The notes under the pieces are model-generated. The model saw nothing but the letters and a program-made list of their open reading frames with translations, was not told where the DNA came from and made no database searches. A program made the position numbers and the translations under genes. A DNA stretch of 45,161 nt from Candidatus Parcubacteria bacterium (GTDB taxonomy: Bacteria > Patescibacteriota > Saccharimonadia > UBA4664 > JAHWKN01): NCBI GenBank assembly GCA_019347875.1, contig JAHWKN010000003.1, positions 1 to 45,161 on the forward strand, in the 5' to 3' direction. Below are positions 1-45,161 of this stretch, piece by piece (positions within the stretch are counted from its first letter, which is position 1; every line of letters starts with the position of its first letter).

Positions 1-215
1 AAGTAACCGGCCGAGGACTGTTTGAGGACGACCACAGGGAGGACGAGTTCCGCAGGCCTACAGCTTAACGGTAGCTGGAGGTGTTTCTAGCTGATGAGCC
101 GGCTTGGCAGTTTTTGGGTTACTTTTTGCTGCCAAAAAGTAACGAGAGAGGCGGTAGATAGGAGGATTAGGAGGGGGAAGGGTAGGACCGCTGGGGAGAG
201 GAGGATAGGCGGAGG
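1..215 (+). repeat. Structured intergenic repeat, half-unit H1 (truncated by window start)
   Basis: Core CCGAGGACTGTTTGAG-[tip]-CGAGTTCCGCAGG at 11-56; perfect 11-bp hairpin GTTACTTTTTG/CAAAAAGTAAC at 118-143; purine-rich tail. Homologous to 9070-9653 and 44758-45161. Confidence 0.9.
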
Positions 216-248
216 CCACTTTTAGGCTTCCAGGCTGGGAAGAAAGAT

Positions 249-2755: not shown

Positions 2756-4129
2756 GTGAGCAGACAGGAGTCTTCCGCACGCCACGCCGCCGCCGGGCTC
2801 CCCATTAGCCGTTTCTTAAGCGGCGGCGTTCAAGCCTTGACCGCCCTGATGCCCTTTCACGCCTTTTTAGCGGTCTACCTCGGCTCCGTCTTTGGCCGGC
2901 AGGAGGTGTTCCAGGCTTGGAAGGAACTCTTAATCCTAATGATGGCGGCGGCTGTGGCTGTGCCGCGTCACTACCCCCGGCTGCTGGAAATCGCCAAGCG
3001 GCCGCTTAACTTGCTGGTGATTGCCTACGGCGCGCTTAGTCTACTGGTCAGCCTGGCTAACGGGAACGTCACAACCGCTAGTTTCTGGTTCGGAGTCAAA
3101 ACCAACCTGGAGTTTTTGATCTTGTTTTTGCTGGCCCAAACGGTGGCCTCCCAGTGGCTGGAACGGCGGCTGGCGGCCATCATCATCGCCACCACCACCG
3201 TTGTGGCCGGGTTCGGGTTTTTACAGGTAGTAGCCCTGCCGCCGGACTGGCTAATTAACTTCGGATATGGGCCCGGTACCATTGAGCCGTTCCGGCTGGT
3301 CGATCCGGCCGTTAACGCCGTCCGCATCCTGTCGACGCTCGGCGGCCCCAACCAGCTGGGTAGTTTTTTGATCCTGCCGATTGCCGCCATGATCTGGTTA
3401 CTAATCAAGAACCGCCGGTGGATCCTACTGGTGCCGCTGGCACTTAGTGTCTTTACGCTGATTCATACTTACGCCCGCGCCGCTTGGGCTGGAGCGGTAG
3501 TGGCGGTAGCTATCGTCATCCTGGCCAGCCTGCCGCGCAAACTGGCGCTGGGAGTAGCTGCCGCCGGGCTGGTGATTGGAGTGATGGGCGGACAGTGGGC
3601 TGTCGGACAGATCAATCAAAGAAGCCAGCTGCAGTTCTATCTGCTGCACGGCCAGGTGCTGGACGGCGTTGTCCGGGGATCGGATGACGGGCGGCTGGTG
3701 GCGCTGGAACGGGGCTTAAACGAGGCCCTATCACGCCCGCTGGGCCAGGGCTTGGGCGCCGCCGGCCCGGCCTCTTTCCGGTCCGGTGACGCCCTGGTGA
3801 CCGAAAACTACTACTTGCAGCTGGCGATCGAAACGGGCCTTGCCGGTCTGCTGCTGTTTGTCGCCCTGTCGGTCCTGCTGGCGGTTGAGCTGTACCGACG
3901 TCGCGACTCGGTTCTGGCCGTCCCGCTACTGGCGGCCCTAGCCGGGATCAGCCTTATCAACCTGGTGCTGCACGGTTGGGCCGACAGCTCAACCGCCCTG
4001 GTGTTCTGGGCGGCGGCCGGAGTGGTTATTAGAAATCCACGGACAAGGGCCGCTAAAGGGCCCGGCCAAAGCCAGCGGCAAAACCTCGTAAACGAAGCTA
4101 ATAATCGTGTCGCAGCAAACCAAGTTTAA
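2756..4129 (+). CDS. O-antigen ligase (Wzy_C-like) family membrane protein
   Basis: About 10-12 TM segments; R..STLGGPNQLG, TYARAAW, PLGQGLG and ENYYLQLAIETGL motifs. Start codon uncertain. Confidence 0.8.
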   Translation: MSRQESSARHAAAGLPISRFLSGGVQALTALMPFHAFLAVYLGSVFGRQEVFQAWKELLILMMAAAVAVPRHYPRLLEIAKRPLNLLVIAYGALSLLVSLANGNVTTASFWFGVKTNLEFLILFLLAQTVASQWLERRLAAIIIATTTVVAGFGFLQVVALPPDWLINFGYGPGTIEPFRLVDPAVNAVRILSTLGGPNQLGSFLILPIAAMIWLLIKNRRWILLVPLALSVFTLIHTYARAAWAGAVVAVAIVILASLPRKLALGVAAAGLVIGVMGGQWAVGQINQRSQLQFYLLHGQVLDGVVRGSDDGRLVALERGLNEALSRPLGQGLGAAGPASFRSGDALVTENYYLQLAIETGLAGLLLFVALSVLLAVELYRRRDSVLAVPLLAALAGISLINLVLHGWADSSTALVFWAAAGVVIRNPRTRAAKGPGQSQRQNLVNEANNRVAANQV

Positions 4130-5119: not shown

Positions 5120-6712
5120 GTGCAGTGTCAACGCTGCGGTAAAAGCGACAAGGTCACCATCGGGGAGCGAAACTACTGTACGCACTGCGGCACGGTCATG
5201 GATCAGGCCGCACCCGTCAACCCGCCGGCCGCCGTCACCACCGGCTACACCGCTGCGCCCAGCGCAGGCCCGCGGACCCGTATGAACGACATCGCCCTAC
5301 CTAAGCCCGCACCAGCACCGGCAGCGGCTCCGGCCGGCTCAGCCACAGCTCCCGTTAGCCCGACAGCTCCGGTCGGTCCGGCTAAGGCTCCGGTCGGTTC
5401 GACTACGGCTCCGGTCAGTTCAACTCCGGTCGGTTCGACTTCGGCTCCGGCCAGTTCGGCCCTCGCTAATCAAAACAACAGCGTTGGACCCAATCCCGCC
5501 CAGAGATTCCACGCCGCTCCCACGCCCGGATCGCCAAAGGTGCTTGATTTAAGCCGGGCGCCGGTTACCGGCTTAGCCGTACCGGCGCAACCGTCCACAG
5601 CCGCCAACACACCAGCCAAACCGCCGGTACCACCATCTGAAACGGCCGTGAGGGTGGCTGCCGGTGCTACTAACCGGCCGGCTGCGGCGAGCCCCGCCCC
5701 GTCCGCACCAGTAGCGCCCCCTCCCGCGATGGCATACCCGGTACCGGCCAAACCGGTGGTTACGCCTCCTGCCGCCGCGGCCCCGGCCAGCCCAGCCTCA
5801 ACCGCGGTTGCCGCGACAGACCGCAAAGAAGCCCGTTTAGCTCGCGCCGCCACAATTGGTAAGAGTGAAATGGTCCAGAAGTTCGTTAAACCTACCCAAG
5901 TAACTGAGGCGAAAACCGTCTCCGCCACGCCTCAACCGCGGCCGACCGCTCAGCCTGCAGCGCCCCCGGCCGCTCTGGCCCCCCGGGTGCCGATGCCGCC
6001 TGCTCCCCAGGCCGTTCCCGCGCCGGTAGCGGCCCGCCCTGCGCCCCCAAGCGCCCCGACATCGCCGCCACCTCGCCCTGCGCCCCCAAGCATTACGACC
6101 GCGTTGCCGGCAACCCGCCTCGCGCCCGCTCCGGCAACCCCGCCTACTCCACCCCGGCTGCCCAATGAAGTAGCCACCCAGATCGCCGCCATGCAGGGGC
6201 TGATCCCGCCGGTTAAACCTGCCCAGCCCGCCGCCGCACCGGTTAACCCAAGCGCCGGTCCCAGCCCGGCCGGCCTGATGGCCGCCATTGCCGCCATCGC
6301 CATTATTGGCGGAGTGATTTGGCAAAACAACTATCCCAACATCGCCCTACAGTCGGCCGCCCAAAAAGCCGGCATTCAGGCCAACCTGCCCAGCTACGTC
6401 CCCTCCAGCTACCGCCTCGACCAGCAGATCACCTACGGGCCCGGGCAGCTGTCGCTGCGGTTTAGCGCGCCCGGCGACTCCGAACCGCTGACCATTACAC
6501 AGCGTAAAACCAACTGGAACTCCACAGCCCTGCTGGAGTACTACATCGCTCCCAAAACCAAGCACTACATCAGTGTGCAAAGCCAGGGACTGACGATCTA
6601 CCTGTACAACAACCACGATGCCAGCTGGGTCAATAAGGGCATGCAGTACGTCATCGAGGGCAACACCCGGCTCAACCGCGACCAAATCATCAAGATTGCC
6701 GAAAGCCTGTAA
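5120..6712 (+). CDS. Zn-ribbon / Pro-Ala-rich / TM / DUF4367-like protein
   Basis: CxxC..CxxC N-terminus; ~360-aa low-complexity P/A linker; one TM; C-terminal LPSYVPSSY...ASW...QYVIEG...LNRDQIIKIAESL domain. Confidence 0.7.
   Translation: MQCQRCGKSDKVTIGERNYCTHCGTVMDQAAPVNPPAAVTTGYTAAPSAGPRTRMNDIALPKPAPAPAAAPAGSATAPVSPTAPVGPAKAPVGSTTAPVSSTPVGSTSAPASSALANQNNSVGPNPAQRFHAAPTPGSPKVLDLSRAPVTGLAVPAQPSTAANTPAKPPVPPSETAVRVAAGATNRPAAASPAPSAPVAPPPAMAYPVPAKPVVTPPAAAAPASPASTAVAATDRKEARLARAATIGKSEMVQKFVKPTQVTEAKTVSATPQPRPTAQPAAPPAALAPRVPMPPAPQAVPAPVAARPAPPSAPTSPPPRPAPPSITTALPATRLAPAPATPPTPPRLPNEVATQIAAMQGLIPPVKPAQPAAAPVNPSAGPSPAGLMAAIAAIAIIGGVIWQNNYPNIALQSAAQKAGIQANLPSYVPSSYRLDQQITYGPGQLSLRFSAPGDSEPLTITQRKTNWNSTALLEYYIAPKTKHYISVQSQGLTIYLYNNHDASWVNKGMQYVIEGNTRLNRDQIIKIAESL
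5326..5460 (+). repeat. Intragenic 18-21 bp tandem repeats (APV[G/S]ST-like peptide)
   Basis: About six GCTCCGGYC(G/A)GTTC-like units in frame. Confidence 0.65.
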
Positions 6713-7163: not shown

Positions 7164-8603
7164 ATGAAACAACCGGTACGAGTCCGCTTTGCGCCCAGCC
7201 CGACAGGATCACTGCATCTGGGGGGTATTCGCTCAGCCTTGTTCAACTGGCTGTACAGCCGCAAATCCGGCGGACGTCTTGTTCTCCGCATAGAAGATAC
7301 CGACCGTGAGCGCTACGTGCCAGAAGCGGTCAATCAGATCCAAGAAAGTTTGGCTTGGCTGGGGCTAGAACCCGATGAGGGCGGAAAGGCCGGCGGCCAG
7401 TTCGGTCCTTATGCTCAATCCGAACGTTTGCCCTTGTATAAAACCGCGGCTGAAAAACTGGTAGCGGATGGGTGGCTGTACCCCTGCTGGTGCAGCTCCG
7501 AGCGCCTCACTCAACTGCGCCAAGCGGCCCAGGCCAACCACACCGCCTTTAAATACGACCGCTACTGCCTAAAACACCCCCAAGACAAAGGCGGACCCCA
7601 TGTACTGCGCTTTAAAGTACCCGATGAACCGGCCACAGTCCGGTGGGATGACGCGGTTAAGGGGATGCTAGAGTTTCAAACCAAAGAGCAGGACGACTTC
7701 GTGGCGGTCAAAAGCGACGGCTACCCCACCTACAACTTCGCCAACGTGGTGGACGACCACGCCATGCAGATCAGCCACGTTTTACGGGCGGAGGAGTTTA
7801 TACCCAGCACCCCGAAGCATATTTTACTGTACCAAGCTTATGGCTGGGAAACGCCGGTCTTTGCGCACCTGCCGCAGGTCCTAGGAAGTGATAAGAGCAA
7901 ACTAAGCAAGCGCCACGGCGCCAAATCGGTACTGGAGTATCGCGATGAGGGTTACTTGCCCGAGGCGGTGATCAACTTTTTAGCCGGGCTGGGCTGGAAC
8001 GCCGGTGAGGGTTCGACCAAGGAGATTTATACCCGCGAGGAGCTGACAAACGCGTTTAGTCTGGAGCGCGTCCAATCCAGCCCGGCGGTGTTCGACCCCG
8101 AGCGGCTCAACTGGCTAAACGGCGTCTACATCCGCTCGCTGCCGCTGGACCGGCTGGCTGAGGCCTGTGCAGGTTTTTGGCCTGCGGTAGCCGCTAAAGC
8201 CAAGGCCGACCATAAAAAAGCGGTGCTGGCACTGGTACAGGAGCGCTTAAAGTACCTAGCCGAGCTGCCGGAGCTGACCCGGTTCTTCTTTACCGATCCA
8301 GCCAGCCTGCCCTTCGATCAGCTAAAGACCGACCCGGCCGCCGCCAAAACCTACCTCCAGGCCAGCCTGGAGGGGCTGGAGGCCGCTAACTTTACCCATG
8401 CGGAGCTGGAAGCGACCCTGCGCGGGCTGGCCGAGCGGCTGGAGGTTAAACCGGGAGCGTTGTTTGGCGTCGTGCGCGTTGCCATCACCGGCCAGACGGC
8501 CGCTCCCGGTTTATTTGAGACCATGCTGGTGTTAGGACGCGAAGCGGTGCTTAGGAGACTGAAAACCGCCCGGGATAGGCTGGCAGAGACGGCAAAAAGT
8601 TGA
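7164..8603 (+). CDS. gltX: Glutamate--tRNA ligase
   Basis: RFAPSPTG.LHLGG (HIGH), LRIEDTD and KLSKR (KMSKS) motifs; anticodon-binding C-terminus. Confidence 0.97.
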   Translation: MKQPVRVRFAPSPTGSLHLGGIRSALFNWLYSRKSGGRLVLRIEDTDRERYVPEAVNQIQESLAWLGLEPDEGGKAGGQFGPYAQSERLPLYKTAAEKLVADGWLYPCWCSSERLTQLRQAAQANHTAFKYDRYCLKHPQDKGGPHVLRFKVPDEPATVRWDDAVKGMLEFQTKEQDDFVAVKSDGYPTYNFANVVDDHAMQISHVLRAEEFIPSTPKHILLYQAYGWETPVFAHLPQVLGSDKSKLSKRHGAKSVLEYRDEGYLPEAVINFLAGLGWNAGEGSTKEIYTREELTNAFSLERVQSSPAVFDPERLNWLNGVYIRSLPLDRLAEACAGFWPAVAAKAKADHKKAVLALVQERLKYLAELPELTRFFFTDPASLPFDQLKTDPAAAKTYLQASLEGLEAANFTHAELEATLRGLAERLEVKPGALFGVVRVAITGQTAAPGLFETMLVLGREAVLRRLKTARDRLAETAKS

Positions 8604-8727: not shown

Positions 8728-8931
8728 ATGAGCGTCCAATTTTACGACGTCAAGTCGCGTCAAGCCGTCGAAGTTCCTGAAAGCGATGTCACAAAGGTCA
8801 AGTACGAGCGCACCACCAGCACCGGGAAGAACCAGGTTCGCTACGCGCTGCGGGGCAACTACGACGGACGCAAGGTGACCAAGTTCGTCAACCAGGCTAC
8901 CTGGGAGGCCACCGACGCCGCAGAAGAGTAG
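8728..8931 (+). CDS. Small beta-rich protein, CC1/DUF5679-like candidate DNA-binding protein
   Basis: 67 aa with own promoter, RBS and terminator; FYDVKSRQAVE...RYALRG..GRKVTKFV pattern. Confidence 0.75.
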   Translation: MSVQFYDVKSRQAVEVPESDVTKVKYERTTSTGKNQVRYALRGNYDGRKVTKFVNQATWEATDAAEE

Positions 8932-8951
8932 AAACGCTGCTTGCGTATCAA

Positions 8952-8980
8952 AAAAGAGAGCCCACCTAGGGCTCTCTTTT
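8952..8980. terminator. Bidirectional intrinsic terminator
   Basis: AAAAGAGAGCCC-ACCTA-GGGCTCTCTTTT. Confidence 0.88.
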
Positions 8981-8997
8981 GATTAGCCTGTGCGCTA

Positions 8998-9018
8998 CTC
9001 TCGTTACTTTTTGACAGC
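8998..9018 (-). repeat. Fragment of the repeat family's terminal hairpin
   Basis: CTCTCGTTACTTTTTGACAGC is 20/21 identical to the reverse complement of 128-148. Confidence 0.7.
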
Positions 9019-9069
9019 TTTTCGGACTCGCTCAGAGTCTTCGACGGTTCATCACCTCCCACCCCTCTT

Positions 9070-9306
9070 CGCAGTGGTCTCACATATACTCCTCCTAATC
9101 TCCCCGTAACCCGCTCTTTCGTCACTTTTGCTCCGTCAAAAGTAACCAAAACCGGCCGAGTAGGTCACTAACTCCAAGCCATCCAGCCCGCAAAAGGCCG
9201 GGCCTGCGGAACTCGCTCCGATTGCATCGGGGCTCAAACAGTCCTCGGCCTAATTCGGCCTTTTCCGGTCTGGCTGTTTGGGGTTAGCTCCAATACTCGG
9301 GGTTGG
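9070..9306 (-). repeat. Structured repeat half-unit H2
   Basis: Reverse-complement core CCTGCGGAACTCG-tip-CTCAAACAGTCCTCGG at 9203-9248; nearly identical to 44830-44985 except at the tip. Confidence 0.92.
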
Positions 9307-9394
9307 TAGGAGGGATTGGAGGATTAGAGATTGAAGACCAGGATAAAACATTGTCCTAAAATCCTAGTTTCCCTTAATCTTAGGCCTGTGAATC

Positions 9395-9653
9395 CTCGAG
9401 CTTTGGCAAAACCGGCAGTGAAGAGCGACAGTAGCTTTATCTATGTATTTTAACTACCGCTCGAGGACTTCCGGCAGCTGCCGGATGAGGACGACCACAG
9501 GGAGGACGAGTTCCGCAGGGCCCCAAGCTAATGGCGTGATGAGCAGACCGCGTTTTGACACCAGCTCGGCAGTTTTGGCTACCTTTTGCTGACAAAAGGT
9601 AGAAGAGGAGGATCTAGGGGGAGGCTAGGAGGGTAGGCGGTAGGCCCGCTGCG
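9395..9653 (+). repeat. Structured repeat half-unit H3 (inverted partner of H2)
   Basis: Core at 9462-9519 with the same tip as H1; 9565-9608 is the exact 44-bp reverse complement of 44804-44847. Confidence 0.9.
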
Positions 9654-9737
9654 ACGAGGGTTGAGGGGGCGGGGTAACCTTGAGACTTTAGGCCGAGGCG
9701 GGTTTAACCATAAGCGTAAAAGTGATATAGTCGTCAC

Positions 9738-10991
9738 ATGGACCCAAACACCAACGCCAGCCCCCGTCCAGGGGCGGTCGTCAAGCCGCAATCCGGCACC
9801 ACTCCACCCCCCATCAAACCCATTCAATTCGGCCCCTCCGCTCAGCCTAATCCGATCTTGCCTGCTGGCGCGCCCATACCCGGGCAGCAGCCAGGTGCCA
9901 CCCGTCGCCAGCGCCTACTAGCTTGGATTAAAGCCCACCCCCGCCGCAGCGCCGCTATAGCTGCCATCAGCCTGCTGGTTGTATCCGCCGCTGGTTATGC
10001 CACATTCAAGTATCTAACCAAGCAGCCCCCGGCTCCTCCCGCCGAGACTACCGCGCCCGCGCCTCCGCCCGCGCCTCCCAAACCGGCCACCAAGCCCTCT
10101 CCGCTGACCGGCGTAGAGCTGGAACCGGCGCTGGCCGAGCGGCCGGTTAGCGCCGTTATCATCGAAAACCACCCTAATGCGCGTCCGCAGTCGGGCCTCG
10201 GCCAGGCCGGTGTGGTGTATGAGGCGTTGGCCGAAGGGGGCATTACCCGCTTTATGGCGCTTTATTTGGAGCAGCGGGCCCCGGCTCTGGGACCTATCCG
10301 CAGCGTCAGGACCTATTTTGTCGACTGGGCGCTGGAGTTCGACGCTCCGGTAGCCCACGTGGGCGGTAACGCCGACGCGCTCGACCTGGTCGCGCCGCTG
10401 GGCTTAAAAAGTCTCACCCAGTTCGCCCATCCCGGTTCATACTACCGCAGCCGTGACCGCTTCGCCCCCCACAACGCCTACACCTCGAGCGACCTGCTAG
10501 ACCAGCTGCTAGCCAAACTGGGCTTCAATCAGCCGGCCAAGTTCAAGCCGTCGCCGCGCAAGCCCGACTCACCTCCGGCGGCCGGGACGGCCGCCACCGC
10601 CCCCACCATCGGTATCAACTACTCCTACCGCGGCTTCCAGGTCGAGTACCGCTACGACGCGGCCACCAACTCCTACGCCCGCTTCATGGCCGGGGCGCCG
10701 CACGTCGACCGTAACGACGGCAAGCAGATCATGGCCAAAAACGTTGTGGTTCAGTACATGCCCACCAGATACGGAGTCACCCGCATCGGCGAAGCCACCG
10801 TCATTATGGGCACACCCGGCAGCGGCCAGGCGGTGGTGTTTCGCGATGGGGGAGCCGTCACCGGCACCTGGAGTAAAGCCTCACACCGGGAGCGCACGGT
10901 CCTGAAAGACACCACCGGCGCCGAGATACCTCTAAACGCCGGCAACACCTGGTACTCGATTGTACCGGTCGGGCGGTCGGTCTCGTACTAG
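9738..10991 (+). CDS. DUF3048 (YerB-like) membrane-anchored protein
   Basis: SPLTG, RP.AVIIEN, ARPQSGL, VYEALAEGGITRF, GPIRSVR and APHN motifs. Confidence 0.88.
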   Translation: MDPNTNASPRPGAVVKPQSGTTPPPIKPIQFGPSAQPNPILPAGAPIPGQQPGATRRQRLLAWIKAHPRRSAAIAAISLLVVSAAGYATFKYLTKQPPAPPAETTAPAPPPAPPKPATKPSPLTGVELEPALAERPVSAVIIENHPNARPQSGLGQAGVVYEALAEGGITRFMALYLEQRAPALGPIRSVRTYFVDWALEFDAPVAHVGGNADALDLVAPLGLKSLTQFAHPGSYYRSRDRFAPHNAYTSSDLLDQLLAKLGFNQPAKFKPSPRKPDSPPAAGTAATAPTIGINYSYRGFQVEYRYDAATNSYARFMAGAPHVDRNDGKQIMAKNVVVQYMPTRYGVTRIGEATVIMGTPGSGQAVVFRDGGAVTGTWSKASHRERTVLKDTTGAEIPLNAGNTWYSIVPVGRSVSY

Positions 10992-26770: not shown

Positions 26771-26845
26771 TGGTGACCCCACGGGGATTCGAACCCCGGT
26801 TACCAGGATGAGAACCTGGCGTCCTGACCACTAGACGATGGGGCC
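26771..26845 (-). tRNA. tRNA-Glu (anticodon CTC)
   Basis: GGCCCCATCGTCTAGTGGTCAGGACGCCAGGTT-CTC-ATCCTGGTAACCGGGGTTCGAATCCCCGTGGGGTCACCA; cloverleaf with encoded CCA. Confidence 0.97.
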
Positions 26846-42246: not shown

Positions 42247-42323
42247 AGTTGACGGCGGGGGAGGGCGGTTTTTGTCCGCTTTCGTCCTCAACACGTCCAG
42301 CCAAGCCAACCTATAATAAAGCT

Positions 42324-44696
42324 ATGCCTAAACCAGACAAGACCGACAAGCGAGAGTTTTACGAAGCCATCCCCGCGCCGGCGCGGTTAAACGACAACGA
42401 CGTCGGGCTGGACGATATCGGCCACGCCCTTGAAACGGCGGCGGCAAGGCTGCGCGCCGAGTGGCTCCGCATCAAGCCGCTGGCCCAAGCCGCCGTTTAT
42501 GACGGCGGCCAGTACGCCCTGGCGTTCGGGCGGGTCATGACCAGCCAAAGCGCCCGCCGTACCTACACCGCCGGGCTGACCCTGAGTTTGATCGCCGGGG
42601 CGGCGGTGGCGCTGCTGGTGGCTTCCAGTACCTACGCCATTTATGCCGGCGACCTGGCCAGCCCCGCGGCGCTGATGAACAAGAAGAACACCGGTACCAC
42701 CATTTTGGACCGCCACGGAGAGGTGCTGTACCGGGTGTACGGCGCCAGCAACCGCCAGCCGGTGAAGATGTCCGAGGTACCCGAAAACCTCATCCAAGCC
42801 ACCCTGGCCGCCGAAGACCCCAACTTTTACCAGCACGACGGGCTGTCGTGGCGGGGCACCTTGCGGGCGCTCTACCACGACGTCAAGACCGGCCGCAAGG
42901 CCCAGGGCGGCTCAACCATCACCCAGCAGTTGGTTAAAAACGCCCTGCTTGATCCAACCGACCGCTCCTTTGAGCGTAAGGCCCGCGAGGCCGTCTTGGC
43001 GGTTGAGCTGGAACGCCGCTACGACAAAGACCAGATCATGGAGATGTACCTAAACGGCATTTACTACGGCCAGGGGGCGCACGGGATCGGCTCGGCCGCC
43101 AAGACTTACTTTAACAAGCCGGTCAAGGACTTGAGTCTGGGCCAAAGCGCCCTGCTGGCGGGGTTGGTGCTGGCGCCCAGCCAGTGGGATCCGACCATCA
43201 ACCCCGAGGCTGCCCAGGGCCGGCGCAACTTTATATTGGAACGCATGCAGGAGCTGGAGTACATCACAGCGGCCGAGGCGGCGGCCGCCAAAGCCGAGCC
43301 GATCGAAGCCTCGGCCCGGCAAATCGAGATCAAGGCGCCCCACTTTGTGTTTTATGTCCTTAACCAGCTGCGGGCGACTTACGGCAGCGAGCTGGTTGAG
43401 CGCGGCGGCATCACCGTCCGCACCACGCTTGATCTGGGTAAGCAGCGAATCGGCGAAGACACCGTTAAGGCCCAACTCGCCAGCCTGCGCGGCCGCAACG
43501 CCACCAACGGAGCCTTGGTGTCGGTCGACCCGGCCACCGGTGACATATTAAGCATGGTCGGCAGCGTCGACTACTTTGCACCAGGCTACGGCAAGGTCAA
43601 CCTGGCGACGGCTTTGCGGCAGCCGGGATCGGCCATGAAGCCGATGGTTTACCTGTCGGCGTTCGAAAAGGGGTGGAACGGGGCCACCGTGGTGGAGGAT
43701 AAGCCCATCGCCATCCCGGATGGTGCCGGCAACGTTTACCGGCCGCAAAACTACGACCTCAAGTTCCACGGCCGCCAAACCCTGCGCAGCGCCTTAGCCA
43801 ACTCTTACAACATCCCGGCGGTCGAGGTGCTGCGCTTCGTCGGCGTACCGCCGGCCCTGGAGATGTCCCACCGGCTGGGCATTACCACGCTTAACGACCC
43901 CAGCCGCTACGGACTCAGCCTGGTGTTGGGCGGGGGAGAGGTGCGCATGATTGATATGGCGGCCGCTTACGGCACCCTGGCCAATCAAGGCACCCGGGTA
44001 ACTCCCGTGGCGATCAAGCAGGTCCAAAACCGCCTGGGCAAAGACATCACCAAGCCGGCCCAGCCCAAACCTAAAAAACCGGCTGTAGATCCCCGCCTGG
44101 TCTACATGCTCACCAGTATCTTAAGCGACAACGAGGCCCGCCGGCCGATGTTCGGCACCAACTCGCCGCTGAAGCTGTCACGGCCGGCGGCGGTCAAGAC
44201 CGGTACCACCAACGACTACAAAGACAACTGGACCGCCGGGTACACGCCGGATGTCGCCACGGTGGTGTGGGTCGGCAACAACGATGGCTCCCCAATGGTG
44301 AACGTCGACGGCGTGACCGGGGCGGCCCCGATCTGGAATCAGTACATGGAAGCGGTGCTGCGGGGAACGCCCGTAACCGACTTCGTCAAGCCGCCCGGCT
44401 TGGAGTCGGTCAGGGTATGTAAGTTTGACGGCGGCATCGCCAACCCGTGGGACGCCAGCGTGGAAGAGTTCTTCTTAGCCGAAGCCAAGCCGACCAAACG
44501 CTGCGGCACCAGCGCGCCGCGTCCCCGGGCGATACCGAGGCGGGAAGAGCCAGAAGAGGACGAGCGCAAACCCGACAAGGAAGAACGCCGCGGTCGCGAG
44601 GAGGAGAATGTAGGGGGCGGTGATTCAGAGGTACTGGTACCACCGACCGAGCCCAAACAGCCGGACCAGCCAGCCGACCCGTCGGACAGTGATTAA
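42324..44696 (+). CDS. Class A penicillin-binding protein (transglycosylase/transpeptidase)
   Basis: EDPNFYQHDG, GGSTITQQLVKN, RK..E and YLN.IYYG motifs; SAMK (SxxK), SYN and KTG. Start placed 6 nt after TATAAT at 42312. Confidence 0.95.
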   Translation: MPKPDKTDKREFYEAIPAPARLNDNDVGLDDIGHALETAAARLRAEWLRIKPLAQAAVYDGGQYALAFGRVMTSQSARRTYTAGLTLSLIAGAAVALLVASSTYAIYAGDLASPAALMNKKNTGTTILDRHGEVLYRVYGASNRQPVKMSEVPENLIQATLAAEDPNFYQHDGLSWRGTLRALYHDVKTGRKAQGGSTITQQLVKNALLDPTDRSFERKAREAVLAVELERRYDKDQIMEMYLNGIYYGQGAHGIGSAAKTYFNKPVKDLSLGQSALLAGLVLAPSQWDPTINPEAAQGRRNFILERMQELEYITAAEAAAAKAEPIEASARQIEIKAPHFVFYVLNQLRATYGSELVERGGITVRTTLDLGKQRIGEDTVKAQLASLRGRNATNGALVSVDPATGDILSMVGSVDYFAPGYGKVNLATALRQPGSAMKPMVYLSAFEKGWNGATVVEDKPIAIPDGAGNVYRPQNYDLKFHGRQTLRSALANSYNIPAVEVLRFVGVPPALEMSHRLGITTLNDPSRYGLSLVLGGGEVRMIDMAAAYGTLANQGTRVTPVAIKQVQNRLGKDITKPAQPKPKKPAVDPRLVYMLTSILSDNEARRPMFGTNSPLKLSRPAAVKTGTTNDYKDNWTAGYTPDVATVVWVGNNDGSPMVNVDGVTGAAPIWNQYMEAVLRGTPVTDFVKPPGLESVRVCKFDGGIANPWDASVEEFFLAEAKPTKRCGTSAPRPRAIPRREEPEEDERKPDKEERRGREEENVGGGDSEVLVPPTEPKQPDQPADPSDSD

Positions 44697-44757
44697 AGCG
44701 ATACGAAAATACACATACTCATCTCGTCCGCCACGCCGCGTAGCGACGCCACCCCTA

Positions 44758-44990
44758 CCGCAGCGGCCCTACCGTCTATCCTCCTAACCTCTCCCTAAAC
44801 CTCCCTCTTCTACCTTTTGTCAGCAAAAGGTAGCCAAAACTGCCGAGTAGGTCGCTAACTCCAAGCCAGCCAGCCCGTAAAAGGCCGGGCCTGCGGAACT
44901 CGTCCCTAGCGGTCCTCAAACAGTCCTCGGCCTTAATCGGCCTTTTCCGGTCTGGCTGTTTGGGGTTAGCTCCGATACTCGGGGATGTTG
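44758..44990 (-). repeat. Structured repeat half-unit H4
   Basis: Terminal hairpin CTACCTTTTG/CAAAAGGTAG; core at 44890-44930; nested stems as in H2. Confidence 0.92.
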
Positions 44991-45034
44991 GGGCAGTCCC
45001 TGGTTTTAAAATCAAAAAAGATGGTTCTGCTTTC

Positions 45035-45161
45035 TCCTGCCAACCCCGAGCATTGGAGTGAGCCCCAAACAGCCGTACCGTCAGCGGCGGATAAAGCCGA
45101 GGACTGTTTGAGCCCCGATGCAATCGGAGCGAGTTCCGCAGGCCCGCCGGTGGCGGTTCGG
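45035..45161 (+). repeat. Structured repeat half-unit H5 (inverted partner of H4, truncated by window end)
   Basis: GCCGAGGACTGTTTGAG-CCCCGATGCAATCGGAG-CGAGTTCCGCAGGCC; tip identical to the reverse complement of the H2 tip. Confidence 0.9.

Follow-up and report, generated by a model that had tools for sequence, protein, structure and literature searches.

What kind of element are the long, folded repeats that lie in inverted pairs between the housekeeping genes of a small patescibacterial genome? The question is raised by positions 9058-9665 of contig JAHWKN010000003.1 of a Candidatus Parcubacteria bacterium (assembly GCA_019347875.1; Patescibacteriota; Saccharimonadia), a contig (C33) of 45,161 nucleotides (nt) that was analyzed in its entirety and is hereafter called the window. 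An initial annotation of this DNA had described a dispersed family of structured, non-coding half-units arranged as inverted pairs. It had likened them to the doublets of repetitive extragenic palindromic (REP) sequences known as REPINs, or to miniature inverted-repeat transposable elements (MITEs), and had regarded such a family as unexpected in a streamlined genome of the candidate phyla radiation (CPR) type. The analysis presented here favors, with a probability of about 0.55, a giant REPIN- or MITE-like, non-autonomous palindromic DNA element whose mobilizer is not among the known hairpin-dependent transposases. The earlier reading is changed in three respects: the constraint on the fold is placed at the level of DNA, the family is found to be widespread and to occur in relatives of the source organism as well, and in other lineages it carries cargo. 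The region 9058-9665 is interpreted as one cargo-less palindromic element of ~0.6 kb, 44739-45161 as a second copy, and 1-217 as half of a third.

Architecture of the Arms and the Core

The layout of an arm was derived by aligning 26 full-length copies taken from across the genome and is given in the 5′ to 3′ direction of the strand carrying GAGGACTGTTTGAG. A rod of ~150-170 nt, an imperfect long hairpin with the core near its tip, is followed by TTTTGG and a 10-bp hairpin of the type YTTTTG...CAAAAR, and then by a purine-rich tail of ~90 nt; a pyrimidine-rich leader lies on the head side. Because similarity continues to the end of the tail near CTGCGAAGAGGGGTGGGAGGCGATG, and in about half of the copies onward through GGGTTAACTTTGAGG, an arm measures ~300 nt and not the ~250 bp first given. 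The core reads GCC-GAGGACTGTTTGAG-(tip hairpin)-CGAGTTCCGCAGG-C and comprises 26 nearly invariant nt. Near the tip of the hairpin, a bubble of near-invariant unpaired bases has GAGGACTGTTTGAG and CGAGTTCCGCAG as its two sides. Three subfamilies can be distinguished by the 5′ arm, all with the same core and 3′ modules, and a handful of tip variants have been shuffled among them. A coding role is argued against by one-nucleotide insertions and deletions between close copies from the source genome. The duplex between the leader and the tail of the same arm is only slightly better than that of shuffled sequences (−50.0 versus −43.5 kcal/mol).

In the window, all five half-units were recovered by nhmmer where the initial annotation had placed them, and a repeat search within the window linked them at 86-95% identity. 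Its account of the TTTTGG-hairpin module and the purine tail holds for all four arms in which these parts are not cut off, and both visible pairs do stand head-to-head with their tails outward. The statement that all arms share the core is accurate for four of the five; the fifth (H3) has a variant in which the 3′ half is kept and the 5′ half is split as GAGGACT-(16 nt)-TGAG. H3 was matched by a covariance model at 9421-9561 (38.2 bits). The remaining subfamily-C copies of the genome, unlike H3, carry the canonical core. The insert in H3 is itself a perfect 16-nt hairpin, TCCGGCAGCTGCCGGA, and replaces GTT in the 5′ half of the core.

The paired arrangement extends well beyond the window. Adjacent copies are head-to-head in 16 of 21 cases among genome loci (at most two mismatches per core half) and in 39 of 52 among the 217 loci listed in this study, the others being direct (8) or tail-to-tail (5). 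The head-to-head pair with outward tails is therefore taken as the unit, as the description of ~600-bp inverted pairs had implied. Pairs in the source genome mostly join two different arm types, that at 9058-9665 being composed of an A arm (−) and a C arm (+); in the pairs of Phascolarctobacterium, the arms are clearly different and one of them has no canonical core.

Covariation and the Nature of the Fold

Beyond the core, the sequences of different taxa show no relationship, yet the two flanks of each locus pair with each other. Across 59 non-redundant loci, the flank duplex has −47.3 kcal/mol with its own partner, compared with −25.6 kcal/mol with the partner from another locus. In a core-anchored alignment of 60 sequences (A1), the proximal stem and the tip helix form 16 pairs in which 74.6% of the cells are paired, as against 34-51% when the partner column is slid by one to three columns. 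The covariation score of these sequences was 0.238 versus 0.119 ± 0.010 after shuffling, and none of 500 shuffles scored as high; pair 39-101 of the alignment, for example, occurs as GC (13), CG (9), UA (8), and AU (6). The covariation is thus significant, and the observation in the initial annotation that the stems differ in sequence while pairing is kept was confirmed. Folded singly as single-stranded DNA, arm H2 was more stable than each of 200 dinucleotide shuffles (z = −6.8 and −6.2 for the two strands), and the fold of H3 alone was not significant as RNA (z = −1.5; 15 of 200 shuffles as good).

Selection for the fold, as proposed initially, cannot be understood as selection on an RNA fold. 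The numbers of G-U pairs on the two strands are 74 and 78 in the rods of 25 of the 26 aligned copies and 162 and 186 in 60 cross-phylum flanks, and the strict helices hold 21 G-U and 16 A-C pairs. The 99 distinct tips include 32 triloops, many of them of the form GC-GNA-GC (GCGAAGC, GCGCAGC), and GNRA and UNCG loops account for five and none of the 99, respectively. Triloops of the GC-GNA-GC type are exceptionally stable DNA mini-hairpins. A sigma-70 scan revealed no promoter-like or terminator-like site in the center of the element. Since there is no G-U asymmetry and the tips are C-GNA-G rather than GNRA, the fold is read as a DNA hairpin or cruciform and not as an RNA, and in all likelihood it belongs to the DNA, or to both strands alike. 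An apparent strand asymmetry in the minimum free energy of whole sequences, in which the core-bearing strand was favored at 47 of 59 loci, was dismissed because it is confounded by the constant core and tails and because G-U pairs are symmetric when rods or flanks are counted by themselves. Rfam 15 holds no matching family: with gathering scores, the sole match in the window was a tRNA, with none at the arms; a scan of 8900-9750 by E-value gave nothing near threshold; and 18 loci from other phyla, searched with gathering scores, had no match at their cores.

Copy Number and Layout in the Source Genome

The source assembly comprises 788,579 bp in 40 contigs (G+C 0.56-0.63) and is 84.8% complete. 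Iterated nhmmer searches gave 78 matches, which were reduced to 69 non-overlapping arms, spanning 12,741 assembled bp, once overlapping reverse-strand self-matches had been removed. These arms occupy dispersed housekeeping loci, and none of the copies has cargo between its arms. A strict core pattern occurs 35 times in this genome and not once when read backwards as a control. As many as 49 of the 80 contig ends fall within an arm, and the tail is directed inward in 45 of these 49, so the assembler broke within head-to-head pairs; the assemblies of small genomes are fragmented by this family. The position of most copies at contig ends could also suggest an assembly artefact or a contaminating sequence. 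This explanation is given almost no weight, because ten arms are internal to contigs and flanked by unique sequence, because an independent contig set from one DNA sequencing run covers the arms at a summed depth of ~400-580, and because the same architecture is found in isolate and complete genomes of other taxa. In that run, word depth is ~12 on unique flanks compared with the ~400-580 summed over arm segments, which is consistent with several dozen copies.

Two contigs show departures from the simple pair. On contig C31 (4-261), two partial arms stand in direct tandem (4-115 and 118-261), so that one of them has either entered the other or been fused to it. The only internal arm that seems to be solitary, at 8300-8660 of contig C7, is preceded by an inverted tail fragment (CTTCCGCAG...CCTACCGTAATCCC) and looks like a pair from which one rod has been deleted.

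Distribution among Bacteria

When the strict pattern GAGGACTGTTTRAG-N8-30-GAGTTCCGCAGG was run on a collection of species genomes, at least 97 genome stretches were matched. Among the matches listed, the Patescibacteria are represented by Saccharibacteria, Kaiserbacteria, Gracilibacteria, Peribacteria, Uhrbacteria, and Nomurabacteria, and the other bacteria by Uliginosibacterium, Niveibacterium, Neiella, Methylotenera, Myxococcota, Spirochaetes, Leptospirales, Nitrospiraceae, Omnitrophota, Lachnospiraceae, and Phascolarctobacterium. A slightly looser pattern matched at least 120 metagenome stretches. A search of other genomes with the core, as the initial annotation had recommended, shows that the family reaches beyond both this genome and its phylum. 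No viral contig matched the strict pattern, and no plasmid in PLSDB had a BLAST match to an arm of the source genome or of Phascolarctobacterium. The TTTTGG-hairpin module is also visible at loci of Proteobacteria, Negativicutes, and Saccharibacteria. In Phascolarctobacterium, a cultivable genus, the ~600-bp pair was present in 10 of 10 genomes searched; one of these genomes (G044) has ~40 element matches among 51 BLAST matches, most of its copies having a one-base deletion in the core. At one locus of a relative (L265, G034:C57), the sequence downstream of an arm resembles by eye the 5′ end of a 23S rRNA gene on the opposite strand.

Closer relatives were compared by means of 60 genomes of the same order or class, the collection holding no genome of the same genus or family. 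The strict pattern found nothing in 40 relatives or in 400 other genomes of the phylum (0.4-2.1 Mb), but these zeros are underestimates, because in the relatives the base after the terminal ...CGCAG of the core is not G; this base pairs with the one that precedes GAGGAC. With the covariance model R1, which was built from alignment A1, 18 of the 60 relatives were positive, with 1-12 matches each, and the source genome gave 38 matches. The family is therefore old and common. Its presence in a CPR-type genome is accordingly not the surprise that it was first held to be; what is unusual is the copy number, 38 model matches in 0.79 Mb as against at most 12 in relatives. As a rule, dispersed palindromic repeats of small size are confined to one genus and associated with a known transposase. 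The present family differs in that its core persists in groups ranging from Patescibacteria to Proteobacteria, Negativicutes, Spirochaetes, and Myxococcota, in surroundings that have changed.

Cargo between the Arms in Other Lineages

In 12 of the 39 head-to-head pairs among the 217 listed loci, the heads are separated by 0.87-2.1 kb, and each interior holds one open reading frame (ORF) of 147-375 amino acids (aa). Seven of these 12 pairs come from related metagenome contigs and have similar arms. Compared by BLASTP at E 1e-3, the 12 interior ORFs do not match each other. Nine of them were scanned against protein families: one matches both Abi_alpha (E 1.4e-35) and PDC-S47, and another PDC-S29 (E 2.4e-17); in two, the only matches are to HEPN and fall below threshold, and five match no family. 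Abi_alpha/PDC-S47 and PDC-S29 are candidate defense families. On contigs L237, L242, and L244, the same gene with NUDIX and TMP-TENI matches flanks three different cargo ORFs. In the related cargo-bearing metagenome loci that were inspected (L193, L242, L244, and L247), a conserved segment of ~50 nt adjoins one arm, and the cargo is read in the direction away from it. The occurrence of variable single genes between them implies that the arms also act as the ends, or as the homology arms, of single-gene cassettes.

Two further features of the cargo loci were observed. In L244, a GC-rich palindrome, GGTGGGCA-N6-TGCCCACC, precedes each head (1476-1497 and 2177-2198), and similar palindromes precede the heads in L237, L242, L247, L233, L167, and L193, all with cargo elements of the proteobacterial type; the cargo is thus also bracketed by these hairpins. 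The cargo ORFs of L094 (5000-5980, −; 327 aa) and L193 (373-1284, +; 304 aa) both end in a zinc-ribbon-like CxxC...CxxC, and neither has a Pfam family above the cut-off or any BLASTP similarity to the other.

Mobility and the Search for a Mobilizer

Gain and loss at the DNA level are supported by an insertion within a gene, by a locus found both filled and empty, and by the copy numbers described above. One RecG of the Kaiserbacteria contains a minimal copy as an in-frame insert of 42 aa, between the DEQH and SMTATPIPRTL regions of a protein that is otherwise 52% identical to a RecG of Paceibacterota. This copy consists of a 23-bp perfect stem, the core, and the tip, without the 3′ module; its core-bearing strand is antisense to the gene, and a weak hint of a 9-nt direct repeat was seen at this insert only. 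In Phascolarctobacterium, the same two genes are ~730 bp apart where the pair is present (G044, G475) and 86-93 bp apart where it is absent (G472, G471), with a possible remnant of the tail in one of the latter. The comparison of filled and empty sites proposed in the initial annotation has therefore yielded presence and absence at one locus, but not the ends of the element or its target duplication: element ends fade into divergent or AT-rich sequence without a consistent direct repeat.

The absence of a mobilizing enzyme from the window, as first described, extends to the rest of the source assembly (84.8% complete), in which Y1_Tnp (the domain expected of a RAYT-like partner), RVT_1, the TnpB zinc ribbon, IS110 DEDD, rve, DDE_Tnp_1, DDE_3, Transposase_mut, and Resolvase had no match. 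A single Xer-type tyrosine recombinase with Phage_int_SAM_1 and Phage_integrase domains was found (C15:3-917, −), cut by the end of its contig. Y1_Tnp is present in 12 of 30 core-bearing genomes. No gene family recurs within 3-3.5 kb of the listed loci; the recurrent neighbors look by eye like housekeeping genes (RecG, UvrD-like helicases, ABC ATPases, IF-2). Abstract-level searches of the literature returned no description of the family, and searches by words of the core sequence returned unrelated primer matches only. Resemblances to the hammerhead CUGAUGA box, a hairpin-ribozyme substrate, the GAGC repeats bound by Rep of adeno-associated virus, and a type I-E CRISPR repeat were considered and dropped, as none matched.

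On the favored reading, the element consists of two inverted arms placed head-to-head, each a long imperfect palindrome from which either strand can extrude a hairpin. The bubble of almost invariant unpaired bases is capped by a tip hairpin that is short and very stable, and a second small hairpin lies toward the outer end. The element probably moves, or moved, as DNA, and the invariant bulged core may be the recognition determinant for a protein that acts in trans by binding a hairpin, a cruciform, or single-stranded DNA. Such a protein would not be one of the known hairpin-dependent transposases, and a pair with an empty center may represent the MITE-like form of a module that is also able to carry cargo. 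If found, the protein partner would reveal a new mechanism by which DNA is moved or recombined and might explain the exchange of single defense genes.

Several observations weigh against this reading. No mobilizing enzyme emerged from the family searches of the source assembly, and neither an autonomous copy nor a transposase between arms was found in the 217 listed loci or in that assembly. Among the 60 relatives, several of the element-positive ones being 97-100% complete, Y1 occurs in 3 of 18 element-positive as compared with 11 of 42 element-negative genomes, IS110 was found in only one of these 18, and TnpB did not exceed the cut-off in any of them; these three do not co-occur with the element. 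Neither a target-site duplication nor an exact end could be defined from the copies of the source genome, the comparison of filled and empty loci, 16 copies of G044, or an automated search for ends. In addition, no contig from the one DNA run of the source sample joins across an empty site. With neither such a contig nor defined ends, movement within the source genome is inferred from copy number alone. With regard to the fold, the core-bearing strand has a slight advantage in the stability of the flank duplexes (43 versus 16 loci; −42.4 versus −39.7 kcal/mol, Wilcoxon p = 3e-4), which leaves room for a strand-specific form, be it RNA or one DNA strand. Furthermore, template-switch correction can likewise produce covariation in DNA palindromes even where folding is not under selection.

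Comparison with Known Elements

The resemblance to REPINs and bacterial interspersed mosaic elements (BIMEs) lies in two hairpin units inverted around a spacer, in the non-coding, intergenic position, often beside terminators, in the many copies per genome, and in the lack of an internal transposase; as in BIMEs, different unit types are mixed within a pair. The REP unit is given as 20-40 bp in PMC3733652. The arm described here, by contrast, has ~300 nt and three modules, of which only the outer small hairpin is of REP size. REPIN-RAYT systems are characterized, in 10.1101/2022.05.22.493013, as lineage-bound and vertically inherited, whereas the core of this family is common to many phyla, and the source genome has no RAYT or Y1 gene. 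The initial comparison to a non-autonomous element is therefore upheld with respect to dispersal, multiple non-coding copies, inverted pairs around a spacer, and the lack of a nearby mobilizing gene, but membership in the REPIN-RAYT systems is not, as both the short REP palindrome and the RAYT gene are missing.

We also liken the element to bacterial MITEs and mobile insertion cassettes (MICs), examples of this group being Correia elements, enterobacterial repetitive intergenic consensus (ERIC) sequences, and Rickettsia palindromic elements. It agrees with MITEs and MICs in its size of ~0.6 kb, its long inverted ends, its lack of coding sequence, and its many copies. The single in-frame insertion in a gene recalls the Rickettsia palindromic elements. 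Passenger genes unrelated to transposition stand between the same inverted ends, as in MICs, only in lineages other than that of the source genome, namely in the 12 pairs with interiors of 0.87-2.1 kb. The element is a small, non-coding, multi-copy sequence with inverted ends like a generic MITE, but no related autonomous insertion sequence was found in the 217 loci or in the source assembly; neither a parent insertion sequence nor a target-site duplication nor a short transposase-binding terminal repeat was identified, and its most conserved part lies ~100-150 nt from the center instead of at the termini. This family spans phyla, whereas none of the named MITEs is known from beyond a single genus or family.

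Among sites that function as folded DNA, attC sites likewise keep their structure and a few unpaired bases while their sequence varies, and both attC sites and pdif modules adjoin single-gene cargo that is often defense-like. In Acinetobacter, inverted sites stand on either side of a pdif module; attC sites, with a length of 57-141 bp, share one orientation in arrays and need IntI. The present sites differ from attC in their inversion, their dispersal, and their length of ~300 nt, and neither an integron integrase nor an array was noticed, although R′/R″ boxes and dif-like sites were not searched for. A reliance on folded single strands or structured non-coding ends is also shared with the ends of IS200/IS605 and their palindrome-associated derivatives, IS110-family elements with their bridge RNA, and the TnpB omega RNA. 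The hairpins of IS200/IS605 are not inverted copies of each other. The element is set apart from all three groups by the absence of Y1, IS110, and TnpB genes from the source assembly and by their lack of co-occurrence in relatives, and the IS605-orfB, HEARO, and related models of Rfam did not match it.

Alternative Explanations

A family of structured non-coding RNA genes, with arms transcribed outward from the center and a core that serves as an RNA motif such as a kink-turn-like bulge, would explain why the invariant bases are the unpaired ones while the flanking helices covary, why the modules follow a fixed order along one strand (rod, TTTTGG, hairpin, tail), and why, at 43 loci versus 16, it is the core-bearing strand that gives the flank duplex of slightly greater stability. 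The 5′ GA and the 3′ GA beside the tip helix may form tandem sheared pairs, and through these tandem G·A pairs the core may bind a protein or make a tertiary contact. We regard transcription into a functional RNA as improbable all the same: the supposed RNA strand has no excess of G-U pairs in rods (74 versus 78), in cross-phylum flanks (162 versus 186), or in strict helices (21 G-U, 16 A-C), GNRA and UNCG tips number 5 and 0 of 99, the center has neither a sigma-70-like promoter nor a terminator-like site, no Rfam family matches, and the recG copy would be antisense to the mRNA of its gene.

The cargo loci invite a different view, namely that the pairs are not transposons but fixed platforms for recombination or docking, whose inverted cores are sites of a host recombinase, or whose arms provide portable homology, and whose central cassettes are swapped. 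The empty pairs of the window would then be unoccupied platforms. The mutually unrelated single ORFs in 12 of 39 head-to-head pairs are in keeping with such exchange, as are the matches of two of nine scanned ORFs to candidate defense families, the one NUDIX and TMP-TENI gene beside three different cargo ORFs, and the uniform reading direction away from the ~50-nt segment in L193, L242, L244, and L247; the only recombinase candidate of the source genome, of Xer type, has the Phage_int_SAM_1 and Phage_integrase domains. This view is nevertheless unlikely, given that it leaves unexplained both the 69 arms at dispersed housekeeping loci of a 0.79-Mb genome and the recG copy, that integration of a circle at one site gives direct and not inverted flanking sites, that no inversion or exchange joint was seen in one DNA run, and that no dif-like sequence was noticed in the arms, where no systematic search was made. 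It is also tempting to speculate, though we think it rather unlikely, that the family is a cross-phylum module without a transposase: its core would be read by a universal or still unrecognized host enzyme (e.g., an Xer-type recombinase, or a replication or repair protein acting on extruded hairpins), its center would dock and express single-gene defense cassettes, and the source genome would represent a burst of the empty form. The non-autonomous palindromic DNA element introduced at the outset thus remains the preferred reading of the pairs in the window.

Arms and Neighboring Features in the Window

The features of the window are compiled in Table 1. Its pairs lie between housekeeping genes. 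The window scan detected no cargo gene or promoter-like site in the spacer at 9311-9390.

Table 1. Arms, spacers, and neighboring features of the 45,161-nt window, with the positions of the core, the TTTTGG-hairpin module, and the nhmmer match of each arm.
Feature	Position	Strand	Core	Module	nhmmer match	Remarks
Arm H1	1-217	+	13-56 (+)	111-143	5-201 (+), profile 56-246	Found by profile search; 5′ end cut by contig start; tail points into contig
PEGA-domain gene	249-1634	−				Adjoins H1
Glutamyl-tRNA synthetase gene	7164-8603					Upstream of the 9058-9665 pair
GC-rich perfect hairpin	8941-8989					Flanked by A-run and T-run; directly left of the 9058-9665 pair
Stray half hairpin module	8993-9018	.				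GCTGTCAAAAAGTAAC-like; just beyond the tail of H2
Arm H2	9058-9310	−	9203-9246 (−)	9121-9153	9308-9063 (−)	Subfamily A, full length: rod, core, module, tail ending near 9058
Central spacer, first pair	9311-9390	.				80 nt; purine-rich left, pyrimidine-rich right
Arm H3	9391-9665	+	9463-9519 (variant)	9573-9602	9483-9660 (+)	Subfamily C; variant core, TTTTGG-hairpin module, purine tail
DUF3048 gene	9738-10991					Right of the pair; promoter-like site 9704-9731 before the gene
tRNA gene	26774-26845	−				Rfam, 64 bits; only Rfam match in the window
Class A penicillin-binding protein (PBP) gene	42249-44696					Left of the second pair
Arm H4	44739-44990	−	44890-44928 (−)	44810-44839 (hairpin)	44989-44754 (−)	Subfamily A; tail toward the PBP1A gene
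Central spacer, second pair	44991-45034	.
Arm H5	45035-45161	+	45099-45142 (+)		45039-45158 (+)	A-like variant; 3′ part cut by contig end

The stray half-module is 88% complementary to 128-153 and may be a remnant of an older copy. From its sequence, the hairpin at 8941-8989 looks like a bidirectional terminator; in a locus of Phascolarctobacterium (L072, ~3860-3900), the element likewise adjoins such a terminator-like hairpin. Elsewhere in the window, tandem copies of ~36-39 nt (CTCCGGTCGGTTCGACTACGG...) lie at 5328-5457 within the ORF at 5120-6712, the C-terminus of which matches DUF4367.

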